Below, in pieces: positions 24,219 to 49,041 of a DNA stretch of 64,000 nt. Every line of letters starts with the position of its first letter. Positions within the stretch are counted from its first letter, which is position 1. The position numbers and the translations under genes are program-made. The notes below the pieces were generated by a model, which did not search any database, was not told the origin of the DNA, and worked only from the letters and a program-made list of their open reading frames with translations. Origin of the DNA: Patescibacteria group bacterium (GTDB lineage Bacteria; Patescibacteriota; Minisyncoccia; Minisyncoccales; Staskawiczbacteraceae); NCBI GenBank assembly GCA_038065715.1, contig JBBTQL010000004.1:35693-99692 (forward strand). Reading direction: 5' to 3'.

Positions 24219-24878
24219 ATGGCTGTGCAAGTCATTGGCGATCTATATGTGGAGTTGGATGGGAAGTTGGCGGAGATTAAGCGGCAAATGAGGCAGCAGG
24301 GAGGCTATCCGTTTGACCCGGAGAAATTAAACAAGTTTCTCCAACTAGCTGTCGAGGGCAGGTTCAACGACAACCGGTGCTGGTGCGAGAAGGAAGGAGT
24401 GATCTACTTTGAGGTCACCTCTGACGGCACGACTGGACCCCAATGGATTGAGCGTCTGGAGAAGAAGGGTATCCAGCTCTCCAAGTGGGCCAAGGACGTC
24501 CTGCTGTCTCCGGACTTCAAGCCGACCAACGGCGTGACCACCGAGATCGCTGTCCTCAAGGGCGCGCTTTTTATGGACAATGATCGCATCACGTCTAAGA
24601 TCCGCGCTGAGGCCGACAAGCGCAAGCTCGTCAAGCCCGAAGCCGAACTCGGTTGCCTTATCCGCGACACGTTCACGGACGAGGAAATCGAAGCCATGGG
24701 TCTTGTGTGGATCGTGGCGTTCCACGAGCCCATCAAGGACTCTGACGGCGATCCGACGTTGCTCGGTGCGCGTCGCCTTGGCGATGGCCGTTGGCTGCGC
24801 GCGTGCTGCGGCCTGCCCGACCGCAGGTGGCTTCGCGACCGTGGCTTTGCCTTCGCCGTCTCGCAAGTATCTTCGTAA
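24219..24878 (+). CDS. DGR target protein (variable C-terminus, probable C-type lectin-like fold)
   Basis: 219 aa; ~60% GC in 33% GC genome; AAAGGAG RBS; C-terminal ...GARRLGDGRWLRACCGLPDRRWLRDRGFAFAVSQVSS encoded by VR. Confidence 0.7.
   Translation: MAVQVIGDLYVELDGKLAEIKRQMRQQGGYPFDPEKLNKFLQLAVEGRFNDNRCWCEKEGVIYFEVTSDGTTGPQWIERLEKKGIQLSKWAKDVLLSPDFKPTNGVTTEIAVLKGALFMDNDRITSKIRAEADKRKLVKPEAELGCLIRDTFTDEEIEAMGLVWIVAFHEPIKDSDGDPTLLGARRLGDGRWLRACCGLPDRRWLRDRGFAFAVSQVSS
24741..24866 (+). other. DGR variable region VR1
   Basis: 126 nt aligning 1:1 with TR1 25208-25333; 22 of 23 mismatches fall at TR adenines. Confidence 0.8.
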
Positions 24879-25207
24879 GTCCTTTGGGCTTGAGCCTTTG
24901 CTCTAGCCCTTGGATCCTCTGCCCTTTGCATTTCCTCACGGACTTGCACTGGGCAGATTTTTTTTGCTAAAATATAAATGGTAATAGGTGAATCTTGCGG
25001 GAGATCAAGGTTTCCCGCGGCCGAATCCAGTATTCGTATGCTGAGAGCGTTTGCGATTAAGGTTGCAAACGGAGGGCATACGAATTACTTTCAAAAAAGA
25101 AGATACTTGGCGTGGGAAACTAGGGCATTACGATGCCGAATTCGATACAGCCCTGTGATCGTAAAACTACTTCAAGGGGCAGTGGCATAGATGGTTTCTT
25201 GCGTATT

Positions 25208-25333
25208 TCTGACGGCGATCCGAACTTGCTCAGTGCGAATCGCAATGACGATGGCCATTGGCTGAACGCGTACTACGACAAGCCCGACAACAGGTGGAAT
25301 CGCGACAATGGCTTTGCCTTCGCCGTCTCGCAA
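25208..25333 (+). other. DGR template repeat TR1 (non-coding)
   Basis: Adenine-rich (AAC-rich) near-copy of VR1; followed by diverged IMH-like end; preceded by conserved CAAGGGGCAGTGGCATAGATGG element shared with DGR-2. Confidence 0.8.
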
Positions 25334-25339
25334 CTCTCT

Positions 25340-25699
25340 TCATTTCTCTCCTTGCTTAGGAGAGTTTTGTTTAATAATTTGTCCCGACCAACCACCGAGC
25401 ATTTTGCCAATTTCATCTAGTTTCAATGATAGAGCAATATATTTTTTGTTATCCAATGATTTTGTTTCCCAAAGAATCATTAAAAATATTTTTAACGTAT
25501 CGACCTTTCTAATTGCTAAACGTACATAGGACAATTTTTCTGATTGCCCAAGAAAACTTGCAGTCACTATTGCCTCTATTGCTTCAACAAAAAGTTTATC
25601 AATTTTTTCACCAAGAGAATATTTATGTATTTTTGGTATAATTAAATAGTGTTGGTACCAAAAAAGATAAGCTTCTTTCAACTTTTGCAAAACAGGCAA
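25340..25699 (-). CDS. Avd-like accessory variability determinant (four-helix-bundle family)
   Basis: ~120 aa from TTG 25699; paralog of 63274-63642; C-terminal ...KLDEIGKMLGGW motif; antisense to TR and RT. Confidence 0.55.
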   Translation of the reverse strand: MPVLQKLKEAYLFWYQHYLIIPKIHKYSLGEKIDKLFVEAIEAIVTASFLGQSEKLSYVRLAIRKVDTLKIFLMILWETKSLDNKKYIALSLKLDEIGKMLGGWSGQIIKQNSPKQGEK

Positions 25700-25739
25700 C
25701 AGTCTGGGGGGGGGGATTAAAAGCTGAGTTATTTTGATT

Positions 25740-26726
25740 ATGAAAATTACTTTGCAACATAAATACGAAGACATCATAAGCGTTGAGAATATTTTGGAAG
25801 CATGGCAAGAGTTTCTTCTCGGCAAAAGAAACAAGCCCGATGTTCAAGAATTTTCTCTCTGTCTGATGAATAATGTTTTTAATTTGCACAACGACTTATC
25901 CAATCATACCTACAAACACGGAGGCTATCAACAATTTAAAATTAACGACCCAAAGCCAAGAACAATCCACAAAGCCAGCGTAAAAGACAGATTATTGCAC
26001 CACGCAGTATATCGTATATTATACCCGTTTTTTGATAAAAAGTTTATTGCAGACTCTTTCTCTTGCAGAAACAACAAAGGCACTCATAAAGCATTAAACA
26101 AATTCAGGGAGTTCAGCTATATTGTTTCCAAAAACAACACAAACACCTGCTGGATTTTAAAATGCGACATAAAAAAGTTTTTTGCCAGCGTTGATCAGCA
26201 GATACTAATTAAAATTTTAGAAAAATATATTTCAGAAAAAGATATTATCAACTTTCTAAAAGAAATAATTTTTGGTTTTAAACCCAATGGTTTGCCTCTC
26301 GGTAATTTGACTTCCCAGTTGTTCGCAAATGTTTATCTGAATGAATTTGACCAGTTTGTAAAACACAAATTGAAAGTAAAATACTATATTAGGTATGCCG
26401 ATGACTTCGTAATTTTATCAGAGAACAAAAATTATTTAAAAAACATAATTCCAGAGCTAAAATATTATTTAAAAAACAATTTAAAACTGGAAATTCATCC
26501 AAATAAAATTTTTATTAAAACATTGAATTCTGGCGTTGATTTTTTAGGCTGGATTAATTTTACAGATCATAGAGTTTTAAGGACAAAAACTAAAAACAGA
26601 ATATTAAAGAGAATAAAAAATAATTCAAGTATTGAAACATTAAATTCTTATTCGGGTTTGTTAAAACATGGAAATATGAACAAAATGATTAAGAAATTAT
26701 TTAAGGAAACGGAGATTGCTTTTTAA
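25740..26726 (+). CDS. DGR reverse transcriptase
   Basis: RT motifs incl. YADD and DGR-diagnostic LGNLTSQLFANVYL (IGxxxSQ); ~328 aa. Confidence 0.85.
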   Translation: MKITLQHKYEDIISVENILEAWQEFLLGKRNKPDVQEFSLCLMNNVFNLHNDLSNHTYKHGGYQQFKINDPKPRTIHKASVKDRLLHHAVYRILYPFFDKKFIADSFSCRNNKGTHKALNKFREFSYIVSKNNTNTCWILKCDIKKFFASVDQQILIKILEKYISEKDIINFLKEIIFGFKPNGLPLGNLTSQLFANVYLNEFDQFVKHKLKVKYYIRYADDFVILSENKNYLKNIIPELKYYLKNNLKLEIHPNKIFIKTLNSGVDFLGWINFTDHRVLRTKTKNRILKRIKNNSSIETLNSYSGLLKHGNMNKMIKKLFKETEIAF

Positions 26727-27038: not shown

Positions 27039-27983
27039 ATGAAAGTTATTGATATTCAAAATTTATTTATTAAGCTTGGAATGGAAGCCGATTTTCGCGG
27101 CAAAGACGGAGTGCAGAGTTTTTTGGATAACAAAAAGAAAAAGTTTGAAAAATTATCTTTACAGGAAAAAGAAGAATTTGATAAAGACGCTTTAGAAAAT
27201 CCTTATTTGGATTCAGGCATTTATAATATTTCAGACGATAAAGAAATAAAAAAAGTTTTAGTTGGGATTGATATTTCGCCCGCAGAAATTTTAATAGCAA
27301 AAGAGCTTGGCGGCATTGATTTAATTATCGCCCACCATCCAATAGGCAAGGGTTTGGCGCAGTTGGCAGATGTTATGAGCCTGCAGTGCGATGTTTTAAG
27401 TTATTACGGAGTTCCAATAAATATATCAGAAGGCTTAATGAAAGAAAGAATTTCAGAAGTGGCGCGAGGAGTTAATGCTTCAAACCACCAAAGAACAGTT
27501 GACGCGGCGAAACTTATGAATGTTAATTTAATGAATTCCCATACTCCAGCCGATAATTCTGCGGCAAAATTTTTAAGGGGTTTAATTGAAAACAAAAAAA
27601 TAGACAGGGTTTCAGACCTGATAAATATATTAAAAGAAATACCAGAATATAAAGAAGCTATGAAAATTGGAGTTGGCCCTAAAATTTTTGTGGGCACGCC
27701 CGAAAATCATTGCGGAAAAATTGCTTTATCTGAAATAACAGGAGGCACTGAAGGCTCTCCAAAGCTTTATGAAAAAATGGCCCAGGCTGGCATTGGAACT
27801 GTTGTTGGAATGCATATTTCAGAAGAGCATAAGAAAGAAGCAGAAAACGCCCACATTAATATTGTGATAGCTGGCCACATTTCTTCAGATTCGCTTGGCA
27901 TGAATTTATTAATGGACGAGCTGGAAAAACAGGGAATTGAAATTGTGCCTTGCTCTGGGTTCGCAAGATTTTCAAGAGTTTAA
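27039..27983 (+). CDS. Nif3-like dinuclear metal center protein
   Basis: IDLIIAHHPIGKG motif and length consistent with NIF3/YqfO family. Confidence 0.6.
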   Translation: MKVIDIQNLFIKLGMEADFRGKDGVQSFLDNKKKKFEKLSLQEKEEFDKDALENPYLDSGIYNISDDKEIKKVLVGIDISPAEILIAKELGGIDLIIAHHPIGKGLAQLADVMSLQCDVLSYYGVPINISEGLMKERISEVARGVNASNHQRTVDAAKLMNVNLMNSHTPADNSAAKFLRGLIENKKIDRVSDLINILKEIPEYKEAMKIGVGPKIFVGTPENHCGKIALSEITGGTEGSPKLYEKMAQAGIGTVVGMHISEEHKKEAENAHINIVIAGHISSDSLGMNLLMDELEKQGIEIVPCSGFARFSRV

Positions 27984-27990
27984 AAATTAC

Positions 27991-28018
27991 TTGACATTTG
28001 TTTTTTTGGGATTAAAAT
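27991..28018 (+). promoter_or_regulatory. sigma70-like promoter (TTGACA-16-TAAAAT)
   Basis: Perfect -35, good -10, immediately after Nif3 stop, drives 28025-28199 transcript. Confidence 0.45.
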
Positions 28019-28024
28019 GCAAAG

Positions 28025-28199
28025 TGAGGGGGTGAGAGATTTATTCTCAAGGACAGAATAGTTCTTAATGAAGGAGGTTTATGCATATGCCTAGCTTCAC
28101 ATTGTCCGAATCTAGTTTAAACAACAGGCCAAGAGCGTTGAGAATTATATACCCCCTCATCAAAAAAACCATCCTTCGATAAACTCAGGATGGTTTTTT
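28025..28199 (+). ncRNA. candidate small RNA / sORF-bearing transcript (33-aa ORF 28081-28182)
   Basis: Promoter and terminator ~175 nt apart; 5' GAGGGGGT pairs with 3' ACCCCCTC; internal strong SD AAGGAGGT then ATG; stop lies inside terminator stem. Confidence 0.35.
28169..28199 (+). terminator. rho-independent terminator (CCTTCGATAA-loop hairpin family)
   Basis: CCATCCT-TCGATAAACTC-AGGATGG then TTTTTT; near-identical hairpin at 36926-36955. Confidence 0.6.
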
Positions 28200-28282
28200 C
28201 GATTGATAAGGCGCATCTTTTTTGTTAATATACAAATAAAGGTCGTAACTTATTTTAGCTTTAAATTATTCAAATTTATTTT

Positions 28283-28561
28283 ATGCCAAAAGAAGAAAAA
28301 GCCCTGCCTGCCGTCAGGCAGGCAATTGGCAAAATTACTCACTATTTTTCTAATATAGGCGTGGCGGTTATTGATATTTCTGGTGTTTTAAAAGAAGGCG
28401 ATAGCATTAGAATTACAGGCGGAGAGAATACAGACTTTGAGCAAGAAGTTGATTCTATGCAGGTTGACCACAAGGAAGTAAAAACTGCCAAAAAAGGAGA
28501 TTCTGTGGGATTAAAAGTAAAAGAAAAAGTCAGAGAGGGATATAGCGTTTATAAAATTTAA
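28283..28561 (+). CDS. small beta-rich protein, hypothetical
   Basis: 92 aa ORF with A/T-rich upstream; no confident family assignment. Confidence 0.45.
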   Translation: MPKEEKALPAVRQAIGKITHYFSNIGVAVIDISGVLKEGDSIRITGGENTDFEQEVDSMQVDHKEVKTAKKGDSVGLKVKEKVREGYSVYKI

Positions 28562-29087: not shown

Positions 29088-30386
29088 ATGAAGTTTGCAG
29101 CTGATTTTCATATACACTCAAAATATTCAAGAGCCACTTCCCCTTCAATGGACTTGGAAAATTTAGATAAATGGGCAAAAATTAAAGGCATTAAGGTTTT
29201 AGGAACAGGAGATTTTACTCATCCTGGTTGGCTTAAGAATTTAAAAGAAAAATTGAGCCCCGCTGAGCGGGGTCTTTTTTGCGCCCAAGGCGCATCCGCC
29301 TTGGGCGCAAAGCTTAATGATAATTTTGCTACTAGGTTTTTACTTACAGCTGAGATTAGCTGTATATATTCTAAGGCTGGTAAAGTTAGAAAAATCCATA
29401 TTATAATTTTTGCCCCCTCATTTGAGGCAGTAGAAAAAATTAATTTAAAACTGGGCCAAATTGGAAATTTAAAAGCAGATGGCAGGCCTATTTTAGGCCT
29501 TGATGCAAAAGAATTGGCTAAAATTATTTTTGACGCAGATGAAAATTGCATGGTTGCGCCGGCTCATATGTGGACGCCATGGTTTTCTGTTTTCGGTTCA
29601 AAATCAGGCTTTAATTCAATGGAAGAGTGTTTTGAAGAATATTCAAAATATATTTACGCTGGCGAAACTGGTTTGTCTTCTGACCCGGCAATGAACTGGC
29701 GGCTTTCACAATTAGATAAAATTACCTTGATTTCTAATAGCGACGCCCATTCCCCCAGTAAAATCGGTAGAGAAGCGAATTTTTTTGATACAGAAATGAG
29801 TTATATTGGGATAATAGACATAATAAAAAACCCCATTAGAAAGCCTTCGGCTTCTAACGGGGCAAGGTTTTTGTATACAATAGAATTTTTTCCAGAAGAA
29901 GGAAAGTATCATTATGACGGCCATAGGTCGTGCGACATAAGATTATCTCCGCAAGAATCAAAAAGATATAACAATATTTGCCCAAAATGCCAAAAACCTC
30001 TTGTTATTGGAGTTTTAAACAGAGTTGAGGAGCTGGCTGATAGGCCTGAAGGATTCCAGCCAGAAAATGCTGTACCTTTTAAAAGCTTAATTCCATTAGA
30101 AGAAATAATCGCTGAATCTATCGGCGTTACGACTGCGTCAAAACAAGTCGCTAAATTTTATAATAATTTAATAAAAAATATAGGCAGCGAGTTTAAAATT
30201 TTGTTAGAAGCAGATAAAGAAGAAATTAAAAAAATAAGTTTGCCTGCCATTGCAGAAGGTATTATAAAAGTTAGGGAAGGGAAAATTTATATTGAGCCGG
30301 GTTACGATGGAGTCTATGGAAAAATAAAAATTTTTGCAAAACCAGAGGAAAAAAAATTTTTATTTTCACAAAAAACATTATTTTAA
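29088..30386 (+). CDS. PHP (polymerase and histidinol phosphatase) domain protein
   Basis: DFHIHSKYSRATS N-terminal His motif of PHP family; 432 aa; terminator-like hairpin pair inserted in frame at 29257-29308. Confidence 0.75.
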   Translation: MKFAADFHIHSKYSRATSPSMDLENLDKWAKIKGIKVLGTGDFTHPGWLKNLKEKLSPAERGLFCAQGASALGAKLNDNFATRFLLTAEISCIYSKAGKVRKIHIIIFAPSFEAVEKINLKLGQIGNLKADGRPILGLDAKELAKIIFDADENCMVAPAHMWTPWFSVFGSKSGFNSMEECFEEYSKYIYAGETGLSSDPAMNWRLSQLDKITLISNSDAHSPSKIGREANFFDTEMSYIGIIDIIKNPIRKPSASNGARFLYTIEFFPEEGKYHYDGHRSCDIRLSPQESKRYNNICPKCQKPLVIGVLNRVEELADRPEGFQPENAVPFKSLIPLEEIIAESIGVTTASKQVAKFYNNLIKNIGSEFKILLEADKEEIKKISLPAIAEGIIKVREGKIYIEPGYDGVYGKIKIFAKPEEKKFLFSQKTLF

Positions 30387-38045: not shown

Positions 38046-38403
38046 ATTATTTTAGTGGAAGCGCCGGGGTCGAACCCGGGTCCAGAAATTTTTTAAAAAT
38101 AAATCTACAAATTTATCTTGCTTTGTTGTTTGGATATTAAATAAGAAGCAAGAAAAATGTTTAATATCCTAATTCTCGTAAATCTCGACAGTTCCCCGAG
38201 AAATAAAACTGCCTATCCTGAAAATATAACACCCTCGGTCCATTTATCAGGAGTCAATGGCGAGGATGCAGCATTAAGCTAAAGCTAGTGCTGGTTGCCT
38301 ATTAAATAAATTAGCAATTATGTTTTTTCTATAAGTTTAACCAGGTTATAGAAAACTGGATTTGCATATTTTTAATGAAACATCTGTCAAAACTTACGCT
38401 CCC
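38046..38403 (-). ncRNA. ssrA: tmRNA (SsrA)
   Basis: Minus-strand 5' GGGAGCG pairs with 3' CGCUUCC-A; tRNA-like T arm GGTTCGACCCC; internal tag frame GCT AAT TTA TTT AAT AGG CAA CCA GCA CTA GCT TTA GCT TAA (ANLFNRQPALALA*); starts 2 nt after smpB stop. Confidence 0.75.
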
Positions 38404-47376: not shown

Positions 47377-49041
47377 ATGAACAAAAAAGCAACTTTTATA
47401 TTGTTATTTATCGTTATTATGTTAGGTTTTTTAGGATTTTGGTATTACAGAAATACGATTTTTTCAAAAGAAATTTTAAAATTAGAAATCCTTGGACTTG
47501 ATTCTGCTAAAATGGGAGATGAAATTAAGTACACTGTAAAATATAAAAATAACGGCAATTTTGTTTTAGAGCAGCCAAAGCTGATTTTTGAGCTTCCTGA
47601 TAATTCTTTAACCGAGGACGGAAAAACAAGATTTGAAAAGGACCTAAAAGATATTTATCCTGGAGTTGAAGAAATTGTGCAATTTAACGGCAGGCTTCTC
47701 GGAAAAGAGGGCGACTTAAAAGTAGCCAAAGCCTCTCTTTCTTATATTCCAAAAAACATAACAGCCCGCTATGAATCAAGCACTACATTTACCACAAAAA
47801 TTGATGCTGTTGCCATAACTTTAGATTTTGATTTGCCTTCAAAAATAGAAAAAGGCAAGGAAATTTCTTATTCTCTTAATTATTTTTCTAACATAGATTA
47901 TCCTTTAGAAAATCTAAGCATGAAAATTGATTCTGTAAACGGTTTTAACTTTGAGTCGGCAACTCCCTCTTCATTAGATAATTCTGAATGGAAATTACAA
48001 ACATTAAACAAGGCCCAAGGTGGCAGGATAAATGTTAAGGGAGCAATTACGGCCTCTGCTAATAGCCGCATAATATTTGGCGCAACGCTTGGCGTATGGC
48101 AAAACGGAGCATTTATCGCAATAAAACAAACCAACGCAGATATTGAGGTTATTGATCCTTTATTATTTATATCGCAGCAAATAAACGGATCTTCTAATCA
48201 CATTGCTTCTCCCGGTGAAAAGCTGCATTATAAAATATTTTTTAGAAATATCGGCTCCAGTTCTTTTGATAATTTATTTATGATAGTAAGGTTAGACGGT
48301 TTAGCTTTTGATTTGTCTACGCTTCAGTCACAGCAAGGGCAAGCAAGGCCAAATGACAATTTAATTGTTTTTGATTCAAAACAAGTTTCAGAATTAACTC
48401 ATTTAAACCCCCAACAAGAAAACAAAGTTGAATTTGATGTTAAGTTAAAAGACAGCTGGCCTCCTGTTCCAGCTGAAAAAAACAATACAGTTATAAAAAG
48501 CAAGGTTAATATTTCTGATATCAGCCAGGAATTTGATACTAAAGTTAATTCAAGATTAGAAGTTTCTCAAAAAGCATATTACTCAAATCAAGGGAATGTA
48601 GAAAATTCAGGGCCTGTCCCTCCAGAGGTTGGCAAAGCTACCACATATACTATAGTTTGGCAGATTAAAAATTATTTTAACGATGTTAAGAATGTAAAGG
48701 TAAGAGCTGTTTTGCCCCAAGGCGTTGTTTTAACCGGGAAAATACTGCCAGACAATCAAATAGCCAATTTTTCTATGGATAATGGCAGCAGGGAAATTGT
48801 TTGGTCTGCTGGAGATATTTCAGCTGGCGCAGGAATTTCAAGTTCTGGGCCGTCATTATTTTTTCAGGTTTCTTCAACTCCAAGTTCTTTCCAAAAAGGA
48901 GGGACAGCGAGCCTTATTGGCCAGGCAACAATTTTTGGCGAAGACCAATTTACTAATTCCACTGCTCAAAGCAATGCGCCAGCGGCAGATACTAATTTGC
49001 CAGATGACCAAAATAATTCTGGCGGCGGAATCGTGCAGTAA
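47377..49041 (+). CDS. membrane-anchored surface protein with DUF11-like repeat domains
   Basis: N-terminal TM; repeated beta-rich modules; G-rich C-terminus. Confidence 0.5.
   Translation: MNKKATFILLFIVIMLGFLGFWYYRNTIFSKEILKLEILGLDSAKMGDEIKYTVKYKNNGNFVLEQPKLIFELPDNSLTEDGKTRFEKDLKDIYPGVEEIVQFNGRLLGKEGDLKVAKASLSYIPKNITARYESSTTFTTKIDAVAITLDFDLPSKIEKGKEISYSLNYFSNIDYPLENLSMKIDSVNGFNFESATPSSLDNSEWKLQTLNKAQGGRINVKGAITASANSRIIFGATLGVWQNGAFIAIKQTNADIEVIDPLLFISQQINGSSNHIASPGEKLHYKIFFRNIGSSSFDNLFMIVRLDGLAFDLSTLQSQQGQARPNDNLIVFDSKQVSELTHLNPQQENKVEFDVKLKDSWPPVPAEKNNTVIKSKVNISDISQEFDTKVNSRLEVSQKAYYSNQGNVENSGPVPPEVGKATTYTIVWQIKNYFNDVKNVKVRAVLPQGVVLTGKILPDNQIANFSMDNGSREIVWSAGDISAGAGISSSGPSLFFQVSSTPSSFQKGGTASLIGQATIFGEDQFTNSTAQSNAPAADTNLPDDQNNSGGGIVQ

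Follow-up and report, generated by a model that had tools for sequence, protein, structure and literature searches.

The window analyzed here is a stretch of 64,000 nt from a Patescibacteria group bacterium (contig JBBTQL010000004.1, positions 35,693 to 99,692 of the forward strand). Within it, a unit of ~175 nt lies in a 300-nt gap between two genes of the + strand, of which the upstream one encodes a NIF3-like protein and the downstream one a small stand-alone beta-barrel protein of 92 residues. The source contig derives from groundwater metagenomes of the Hainich, and on the source contigs this gap is without a called gene. The unit runs from a promoter to an intrinsic terminator, encloses a covarying RNA structure and appears to be the gene of a small RNA (sRNA). 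The locus is made up of the following features:

27039-27983, + strand: NIF3-like gene, upstream neighbor of the RNA
27991..28018, + strand: sigma-70-type promoter of the RNA, with the -35 element TTGACA at 27991-96, the -10 element TAAAAT at 28013-18 and a spacer of 16 nt
28025..28159, + strand: structured RNA core of ~135-137 nt closed by helix P1, supported by covariance model R1, alignment A2 and covariation
28162..28199, + strand: intrinsic terminator, consisting of an A-tract, a 7-bp stem (28169-75/28187-93, CCATCCT/AGGATGG), an 11-nt loop and U6 at 28194-99
28203..28231, + strand: separate promoter of the barrel gene, with the -35 element TTGATA directly after the U-tract and an extended -10 element TGTTAATAT
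28238..28245, + strand: AAAGGUCG box at about +1 of the downstream mRNA, conserved as AAAGGUC(G)
28283..28561, + strand: gene of the 92-residue stand-alone beta-barrel protein with the fold of EF-Tu domain 2 and the U32 C-terminal domain (Pfam PF03144)

Promoter and terminator had both been proposed in the original prediction, which was made from the letters of the window, and both hold up in the comparison of homologs. The promoter TTGACA-16-TAAAAT agrees with the consensus in 11 of 12 positions, and TTGAC[AT]-16-TA[A/G/C]AAT is found in 89 of 98 distinct copies of the RNA. Since the -10 element ends 8-10 nt before helix P1 across homologs, the RNA starts essentially at P1. The 7-bp stem of the terminator (CCATCCT...AGGATGG, followed by TTTTTT) is G+C-rich in the window, where an automatic terminator scan missed it solely because of the 11-nt loop. 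A hairpin with a T-run follows P1 in 89 of 97 evaluable copies, at a median distance of 26 nt and with a median stem energy of -10.7 kcal/mol, the sequence of the stem varying between homologs. The further suggestion that the short unit is closed by pairing of its 5' leader with its 3' end is equally borne out, as GAGGGGGT (28026-28033) is complementary to ACCCCCTC (28151-28158) and this closure is conserved. The free energy of folding of the 175-nt strand is -54.9 kcal/mol, with z = -4.7 relative to dinucleotide shuffles. A promoter of its own and a Rho-independent terminator, conserved together, mark a stand-alone, intrinsically terminated sRNA gene; both are present here, and it is very likely that the RNA constitutes an independent transcription unit.

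How widely is this RNA distributed, and does it belong to a known family? Through the NIF3-like protein 80 genome loci were gathered (the synteny-derived set), and blastn detected the element in ~33 of them at 70-94% identity, the nearest genomes being metagenome-assembled genomes of Candidatus Staskawiczbacteria (Parcubacteria/Patescibacteria). In a first alignment the -35 and -10 elements are conserved, AAGGAC and AUUGUCCGAA are invariant, a G-rich 5' end and a C-rich 3' end are both conserved, and a terminator of differing sequence is always present. From this alignment RNAalifold predicted five helices with compensatory change at 20 of 28 pairs, and covariance model R1 was used to search the window as well as genome and metagenome loci. 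R1 has one match in the window, with 142.6 bits on the + strand versus 26 bits on the - strand, and is positive in 31 of the 80 synteny-derived genome loci, in 89 of 101 metagenome stretches retrieved by the motif AAGGACANANTANNT-N30-44-TTGTCCGAA, and in eight of nine loci reached independently via homologs of the 92-residue protein. In total 101 distinct core sequences were collected from genomes and metagenomes. Alignment A2 comprises 100 sequences; 28 synteny-derived sequences were found without any motif constraint. In A2, 95.7% of the cells are in standard pairs and compensatory change occurs at 30 of 40 pairs. None of 500 shuffles reaches any of the measures, a control that overstates the significance because the homologs are phylogenetically related, and slid partners give 31-52% pairing. 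That the RNA is a non-coding structured RNA can be regarded as nearly certain. A 23.8-bit match of the model at 47854-47978 of the - strand, considered as a second copy in the window, was discarded as a chance match, being without AAGGAC and TTGTCCGAA and coding-like by eye.

At the gathering threshold Rfam 15 places no family on the element and finds within the 64 kb only transfer-messenger RNA (tmRNA) elsewhere. At E values up to 10 the element returns terminator matches far below gathering and one 13-bit match of the whole unit (BTnc231), and in 20 homologous loci it is unmatched at E up to 5. A literature search for a described RNA of such kind from Patescibacteria, the candidate phyla radiation (CPR), returned nothing relevant. 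With neither an Rfam 15 match nor a description in the literature, the class appears undescribed. The element is not found at the equivalent position beside the same genes in Nealsonbacteria-like loci, and the family seems to be confined to one Staskawiczbacteria-like clade of Patescibacteria, ultra-small bacteria living in groundwater.

The core is composed of the following elements, all on the + strand:

28026..28033: 5' strand of P1, GAGGGGGU, paired with 28151-28158
28036..28048: P2, an optional small hairpin GAGA-UUUAU-UCUC seen by covariation (28036-39 paired with 28045-48)
28051..28055: GGACA within the single strand AAGGACA between P2 and P3, the proposed 5' strand of a pseudoknot
28063..28070: 5' strand of P3, paired with 28136-28143
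28076..28078: 5' strand of P4, GGU, paired with 28128-28130 and overlapping a Shine-Dalgarno-like sequence; P4 closes the multiloop
28083..28090: palindrome A, GCAUAUGC, the junction strand directly 5' of P5, a proposed intermolecular duplex
28091..28115: hairpin P5, with the stem 28091-98/28108-15 and the loop ACAUUGUCC at 28099-28107
28103-07: UGUCC in the P5 loop, the proposed 3' strand of the pseudoknot
28115..28122: palindrome B, GUUUAAAC, with the core UUUAAA at 28116-21, the junction strand directly 3' of P5, likewise a proposed intermolecular duplex
28128..28130: 3' strand of P4, GCC, paired with 28076-28078
28136..28143: 3' strand of P3, paired with 28063-28070
28151..28158: 3' strand of P1, ACCCCCUC, paired with 28026-28033

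P1 shows compensatory changes at all five modeled pairs, with 98.8% of the cells paired, and P3 at seven of eight pairs. P2 covaries as well (GAAG/CUUC, GGAG/CUCC, GAGG/CCUC, GAUG/CAUC); it is absent in loci L023, L033 and L054, and other homologs carry insertions. All three pairs of P4 covary (GC/AU; UA/UG/CG), the helix occurring as GGU/GCC, GAC/GUC, GAU/AUC and GAC/GUU. A local hairpin AGGU...ACCU had been considered in place of P4 and was rejected, as the homologs with GAC/GUC, GAU/AUC and GAC/GUU break it and support P4. In P5, compensatory change is found at five of eight stem pairs, and UUGUCC and the closing GAA are invariant or nearly so; L186, a homolog found independently of the motif, has CGUGUCC in the P5 loop and differs only in the flanking loop bases. 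GGACA is invariant in 100 of 100 aligned sequences, including the 28 found without motif constraint, and is exactly complementary to UGUCC, and it is likely from this complementarity that the two strands pair to form a 5-bp pseudoknot. In addition, columns 15 and 207 of A2 (~28035 and ~28149 in the window), which correspond to the base before P2 and to one within AUUAUA, the strand joining P3 to P1, show strong covariation of non-Watson-Crick type (mutual information with average product correction, 0.44), with A opposite A in the group of the window and C opposite U in most others. Such a signal could stem from a tertiary contact within the three-way junction, or it could be an artefact of phylogeny.

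On either side of P5 the strands of the multiloop are palindromic, and they change between homologs in a manner that keeps them so. Region A occurs as GUAUAUAC, GCAUAUGC, GCGUACGC, GUAUGUAC, GUGUACAC, AUGUGCAU, GCGCGC and others, and region B in at least 12 types, among them CUCGAG, UUUAAA, CCUAGG, CCCGGG, CUUAAG, CCUGGG, CUGCAG, UCGCGA, UUCGAA and GCGCGC. In an alignment-free count, a self-complementary stretch of 8 nt is present in region A of 78 of 100 homologs versus 10% of shuffles, and one of at least 6 nt in region B of 98 of 100 homologs versus 22% of shuffles. Scored as if they were helices, the palindromes show compensatory change at seven of seven mirror pairs (four of four in A), and even the central adjacent columns covary (UA/UG/CG). 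In a scan of corrected mutual information the best partner of each palindrome column is its mirror column, and these pairs are among the strongest of the whole RNA, on a level with the true helices. In a MAFFT alignment of the 28 synteny-derived sequences that is agnostic of structure, 89.3% of the palindrome cells are paired compared to 72.7% in shuffles, with none of 500 shuffles reaching the observed pairing or covariation score. The motif-independent homolog L186 keeps both palindromes (GUUGCGUAAC, GCUUGAGC). As the sequences are related, the most robust argument is the number of distinct GC-containing types.

What could the palindromes pair with? Hairpins were considered and rejected, as the covariation of inner and even adjacent pairs would require loops of 0-2 nt, which are impossible within one strand. 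Because the mirror pairs enclose only 0-2 nt, and because a protein site would conserve its sequence and not covary, pairing of each strand with its twin in a second RNA molecule is the most economical explanation. Self-complementarity that is kept by compensatory change and that is unable to pair intramolecularly is the signature of a homodimeric RNA, and it is found here; judged from this signature, the palindrome strands probably pair between two RNA molecules to form a homodimer. RNAcofold favors dimers by 6-12 kcal/mol, only one of the two duplexes being includable at once. The homodimer would be two-fold symmetric and held together by an 8-bp and a 6-bp intermolecular duplex of the junction strands, and, as both duplexes flank the same hairpin, its geometry may resemble a double crossover, which is our own suggestion.

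Self-assembly of bacterial non-coding RNAs is known for ARRPOF, which has an intermolecular, 12-bp self-complementary P10, for the group IIC ribozyme HYER1 with palindromic pairing in D3, and for the OLE dimer (PMC12990946, PMC12286853), and palindromic intermolecular pairing is established in natural RNA homodimers such as HYER1 and P10 of ARRPOF (PMC12990946). Like these, the RNA of the window is a structured bacterial RNA recognized by comparative genomics, with self-complementary segments and a symmetric homodimer, here suggested by covariation only. Unlike them, it has a core of ~137 nt as compared to 255-640 nt, it is unrelated in sequence and secondary structure, and both of its putative contacts are junction strands flanking one hairpin and not kissing loops. 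A further parallel is the dimerization initiation site of HIV-1, a 6-nt palindrome that covaries between subtypes (GCGCGC, GUGCAC). Palindrome B similarly changes between lineages (CUCGAG, CCUAGG, CCCGGG, CUUAAG) and stays self-complementary; the HIV-1 site, however, is part of a viral genome, where it sits in the loop of a hairpin and has a role in packaging, whereas palindrome B lies in the multiloop of a bacterial sRNA. Orphan structured sRNAs of bacteria whose dimer contacts are self-complementary are already known as a general kind, and what is new is the architecture, in which a single pseudoknot-forming hairpin is flanked by two junction-strand palindromes within an RNA core of only ~137 nt.

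How is the RNA related to the gene that follows it? In 92 of 97 RNA copies with enough flank the barrel gene is the next downstream gene on the same strand, 80-660 nt away, and it is found there even though the upstream gene varies among copies. Its promoter is conserved across homologs as TTGAnn ... TGnTAnnAT, and promoter and box persist in L037, a locus without the RNA. The AAAGGUC(G) box precedes the start codon by 30-45 nt, no Shine-Dalgarno sequence being obvious there, and resembles the AAGGAC of the sRNA, yet it is complementary to no part of it; in L027, L028 and L114 a hairpin is inserted between the -10 element and the box. Pairing of the sRNA with the downstream mRNA leader or the box was considered and dropped, as RNAduplex gave no consistent site in 79 loci. 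In five copies the barrel gene is not the next gene. The RNA is followed by greA in L142, by a convergent tRNA-like feature (by eye) in L118 and by a degenerate Lys-rich open reading frame (ORF) in L120, while large minus-strand ORFs, transposase-like by eye, split it from its usual neighbor in L124 (262 residues, ~60 nt after the core, with no terminator detected there) and L139 (435 residues, beginning within the terminator). In L192/193 two unrelated genes lie between RNA and barrel gene. The RNA gene is thus autonomous, and its place beside the barrel gene is the usual one but not obligatory. Among relatives without the sRNA, L053 (~1140-1340), L021 and L036 hold a different promoter-to-terminator unit upstream of the barrel gene; that of L053 starts with TTGACA...TAAAAT, continues with a long, C-rich and seemingly unstructured tract (CCCCAACCAACACCCCAACCCC...) and ends with a terminator. 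Such a unit could be another sRNA with C-rich seed-like motifs.

The barrel protein has 1474 homologs, essentially all from Patescibacteria metagenomes, which are annotated as 'EF-Tu/IF-2/RF-3 family', as 'putative protease' or as hypothetical, and many of which have Lys-rich N-terminal extensions. The AlphaFold2 model of the 92-residue protein is an all-beta barrel (mean confidence score pLDDT 83). Its best Foldseek matches are the C-terminal domain of the Geobacillus U32 'peptidase' (4he5/4he6; template modeling score 0.82-0.91, rmsd 1.1-1.4 Å), followed by structures of EF-Tu domain 2 and IF2, and a sequence search of the PDB returned only weak matches to barrels of the eIF5B/NusG type. In both EF-Tu and IF2 it is the 3' end of aminoacyl-tRNA to which such barrels bind, and RNA is also what U32 enzymes act on. 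By analogy an RNA-binding role of the barrel protein is plausible. That the sRNA is the partner of this protein, as their synteny would suggest, is possible but doubtful. A tRNA-like acceptor, in which a 7-bp P1 with an NCCA tail would serve the protein resembling EF-Tu domain 2, was also considered and rejected, NCCA following P1 in ~22 of 96 copies and the window having AUCA.

A different view of the locus was taken in the original prediction, where two features overlapping the structure led to the proposal of a dual-function sRNA, a leader peptide or a small protein missed by annotation:

28071-78, + strand: Shine-Dalgarno-like sequence AAGGAGGT, upstream of the ORF
28081..28182, + strand: ORF of 33 codons with ATG start (MHMPSF...), not conserved and regarded as fortuitous

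All three possibilities depend on translation of this ORF, at least in the sub-clade of the window. Both features are present as described, a second ATG (28087) has a good spacing of 8 nt from AAGGAGGT, and the ORF is found at the aligned position in ~7 of 101 distinct homologs, the closest relatives of the window (kept in L004, L027, L157, L182 and L105, truncated in L008 and L165). In the other ~94, however, it is lost while the structure stays, the ATG being absent (for example TTAAAGTATATACC), the frame being shifted by indels of 1-2 nt, or stops occurring early. Even among the ORF-keeping relatives the Shine-Dalgarno sequence is lost, as AAGGAGGT is replaced by AAAAAGGT or ATAAAAGGT in L027, L182 and L157, and the ratio of nonsynonymous to synonymous changes (pN/pS) is ~0.2-1.6 on roughly 17 synonymous sites only. 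The C-terminus crosses the variable linker and the terminator and is different in every relative, and a Pfam search of the peptide gave no match. Furthermore, the Shine-Dalgarno-like bases make up the internal loop between P3 and P4 together with the 5' strand of P4, a covarying helix, and of the two ATGs one lies in the linker and the other in palindrome A. The attributes of a small-protein gene, that is conservation of start, frame and ribosome-binding site and purifying selection, were not observed. The ORF had been called strongly ribosome-bound, which was a supposition without support, and its stop codon had been placed in the terminator stem, though TAA (28180-82) lies in the hairpin loop. 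A peptide that is not conserved under a conserved structure was the outcome that the original prediction had assigned to a pure sRNA, and since this is what the comparison found, the RNA is by that standard a pure sRNA. Known dual-function sRNAs, such as SgrS/SgrT, RNAIII/hld and SR1/SR1P, contain a small conserved ORF. The unit shares with them the promoter-to-terminator layout and, in the window only, a Shine-Dalgarno-like sequence with a short ORF, and differs from them in that its ORF is not conserved. An attenuator with a leader peptide is not indicated, the ORF being not conserved, no alternative pairing of the terminator being seen by eye and the downstream gene having its own promoter; neither is a type I toxin-antitoxin system, as the peptide is hydrophilic and basic by reading and not conserved, and the minus strand scores 26 bits. 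With no gene called here on the source contigs either, a translated ORF is very improbable. Misannotation in the opposite sense is seen in L185, where a 139-residue gene without Pfam match (971-1390, - strand) is called antisense across the sRNA (model match at 1065-1202, 110 bits), a call that is probably spurious and due to the lack of annotation of the RNA.

The RNA could alternatively be a cis-acting leader, either a riboswitch aptamer or a protein-binding attenuator, whose terminator controls read-through into the barrel gene. The tight same-strand association with one gene family fits this idea, the order of a conserved pseudoknotted domain and, directly after it, an intrinsic terminator is reminiscent of transcriptional riboswitches, and the barrel protein could autoregulate by binding the RNA. 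An orphan riboswitch candidate tied in this way to one gene of unknown function is the yjdF motif (PMC4793209), likewise a conserved pseudoknotted domain located almost exclusively upstream of one small gene family. Of the hallmarks of a riboswitch, however, only the conserved covarying domain is found, with no sign of a 5' untranslated region on the same transcript with an expression platform. Unlike the yjdF motif, the RNA is separated from the gene by a complete and conserved promoter, which persists where the RNA is absent, no antiterminator is visible for its strong terminator, and the RNA is retained where the gene has been lost (L118, L142); because of these three properties the RNA looks like a gene of its own and not like a 5' untranslated region. 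Moreover, the start codon lies at a long and variable distance, and insertion sequence elements or whole genes may intervene; no conserved antiterminator or other alternative pairing with the terminators, which differ in sequence, was seen when the homolog sequences were inspected by eye; and self-complementary strands are unexpected in a simple aptamer. A leader is therefore improbable. Still less probable, and about on a par with a translated ORF, is a divergent housekeeping RNA such as 6S or the 4.5S RNA of the signal recognition particle (SRP) that Rfam models fail to recognize in fast-evolving genomes. A strong constitutive promoter, the stand-alone organization, pairing of 5' and 3' ends and a size of ~170 nt are typical of such RNAs, and tmRNA alone was detected in the 64-kb window. 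Against this stand the Rfam searches, in which the element gave nothing apart from the sub-gathering terminator matches and the 13-bit BTnc231 match and its 20 homologous loci gave none, the three-way junction, pseudoknot and palindrome multiloop, which are unlike the 6S rod with its central bubble, the absence, on inspection of the window sequence, of the SRP domain IV motifs (GNRA tetraloop, symmetric and asymmetric loops), and the apparent confinement of the family to one clade, with nothing beside the same genes in Nealsonbacteria-like loci. A monomeric sRNA deserves more weight, though we consider it clearly less likely than the homodimer. The palindromes would then be a side effect of AU-rich composition and common ancestry, or binding sites of a dimeric factor. 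The commonest types do dominate (GUAUAUAC in 39 sequences, CUCGAG in 45), possibly by phylogeny, a control in which partners are slid by ±2 reaches 58-64% owing to the alternating AU sequence, and some homologs lack a good palindrome A. These points have to be set against the perfect symmetry of GC-rich variants (GCGUACGC, GCGCGCGC, CCCGGG, CCUAGG, CUGCAG, UCGCGA), the mutual information of the mirror columns, which equals that of true helices, the 500 shuffles, none of which attains the observed pairing or covariation score, and the expectation that a protein site be conserved in sequence.

Taken as a whole, we favor the reading of the unit as a gene that specifies an autonomous, non-coding structured sRNA, probably dimeric and possibly a partner of the barrel protein, with a probability of roughly 0.6. 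The sRNA would be ~165-175 nt long, starting 1-3 nt before P1 and ending at the terminator U-tract, and would be strongly promoted, constitutively terminated and, judging from conservation, non-coding. It folds into a three-way junction and a multiloop (P1, the optional P2, P3, P4 and P5) with the putative pseudoknot, and probably dimerizes via its two palindromic junction strands. More speculatively, and on the strength of linkage only, it may act as a protein-binding RNA, the ribonucleoprotein partner of the lysine-tailed barrel protein, rather than as a leader of the barrel mRNA. Several points count against this reading. The transcript ends are deduced from promoter and terminator motifs, and the pseudoknot from the complementarity of two strands that never vary, so that covariation cannot prove it, most of the 100 aligned homologs moreover having been retrieved by a motif that fixes these very bases. 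Dimerization is deduced from sequence, AU-rich palindromes such as UAUAUA arise easily, and palindrome A is weak in L095, L162 and L192. The link to the protein is one of synteny, and each of the two is also found alone, the barrel gene in at least eight loci with no RNA upstream of it and the RNA in loci that lack the gene. Only tentatively can it be proposed that the ~137-nt core defines a new class of small RNA, a symmetric, double-crossover-like homodimer with an invariant pseudoknot in each protomer that would form a ribonucleoprotein with the barrel protein in CPR bacteria.

Further features of the window lie outside the unit:

24741-26726: complete diversity-generating retroelement
24741-24874 and 25208-25341: variable repeat and template repeat of this element, 134 nt, 82% identical, with mismatches nearly all at template adenines
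25340-25834, - strand: bAvd-like four-helix-bundle gene of the element
25734-26726: reverse transcriptase of the element
29088-30386: gene of a 432-residue protein with a PHP-like N-terminus (HIHSKYS) and a CPKC zinc-finger-like motif
38053-38403, - strand: tmRNA gene (RF00023, 112 bits), the sole Rfam family passing gathering in the 64-kb window

A link between the sRNA and the neighboring reverse transcriptase was considered and rejected, as a reverse transcriptase lies upstream in only three of ~100 contexts and the one in the window is part of the separate retroelement. The 432-residue protein, often found in synteny with the barrel gene, has matches to TIGR00375 and the MJ0043_C family and presumably resembles repair enzymes of the endonuclease Q type.

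What does the finding mean for these bacteria? It removes a false small-protein candidate and draws attention to spurious ORF calls over the RNA, such as the one in L185. Patescibacteria have tiny genomes and almost no characterized regulatory RNAs, and a strongly promoted, conserved and pseudoknotted sRNA in a tiny genome likely has an important role. Natural RNA homo-oligomers have so far been found mostly among large 'ornate' RNAs, and an RNA of 137 nt with dimer contacts that can be read from covariation would give a compact system for RNA quaternary structure. In addition, the RNA would offer a handle on the role of the widespread stand-alone, translation-factor-like barrel proteins.

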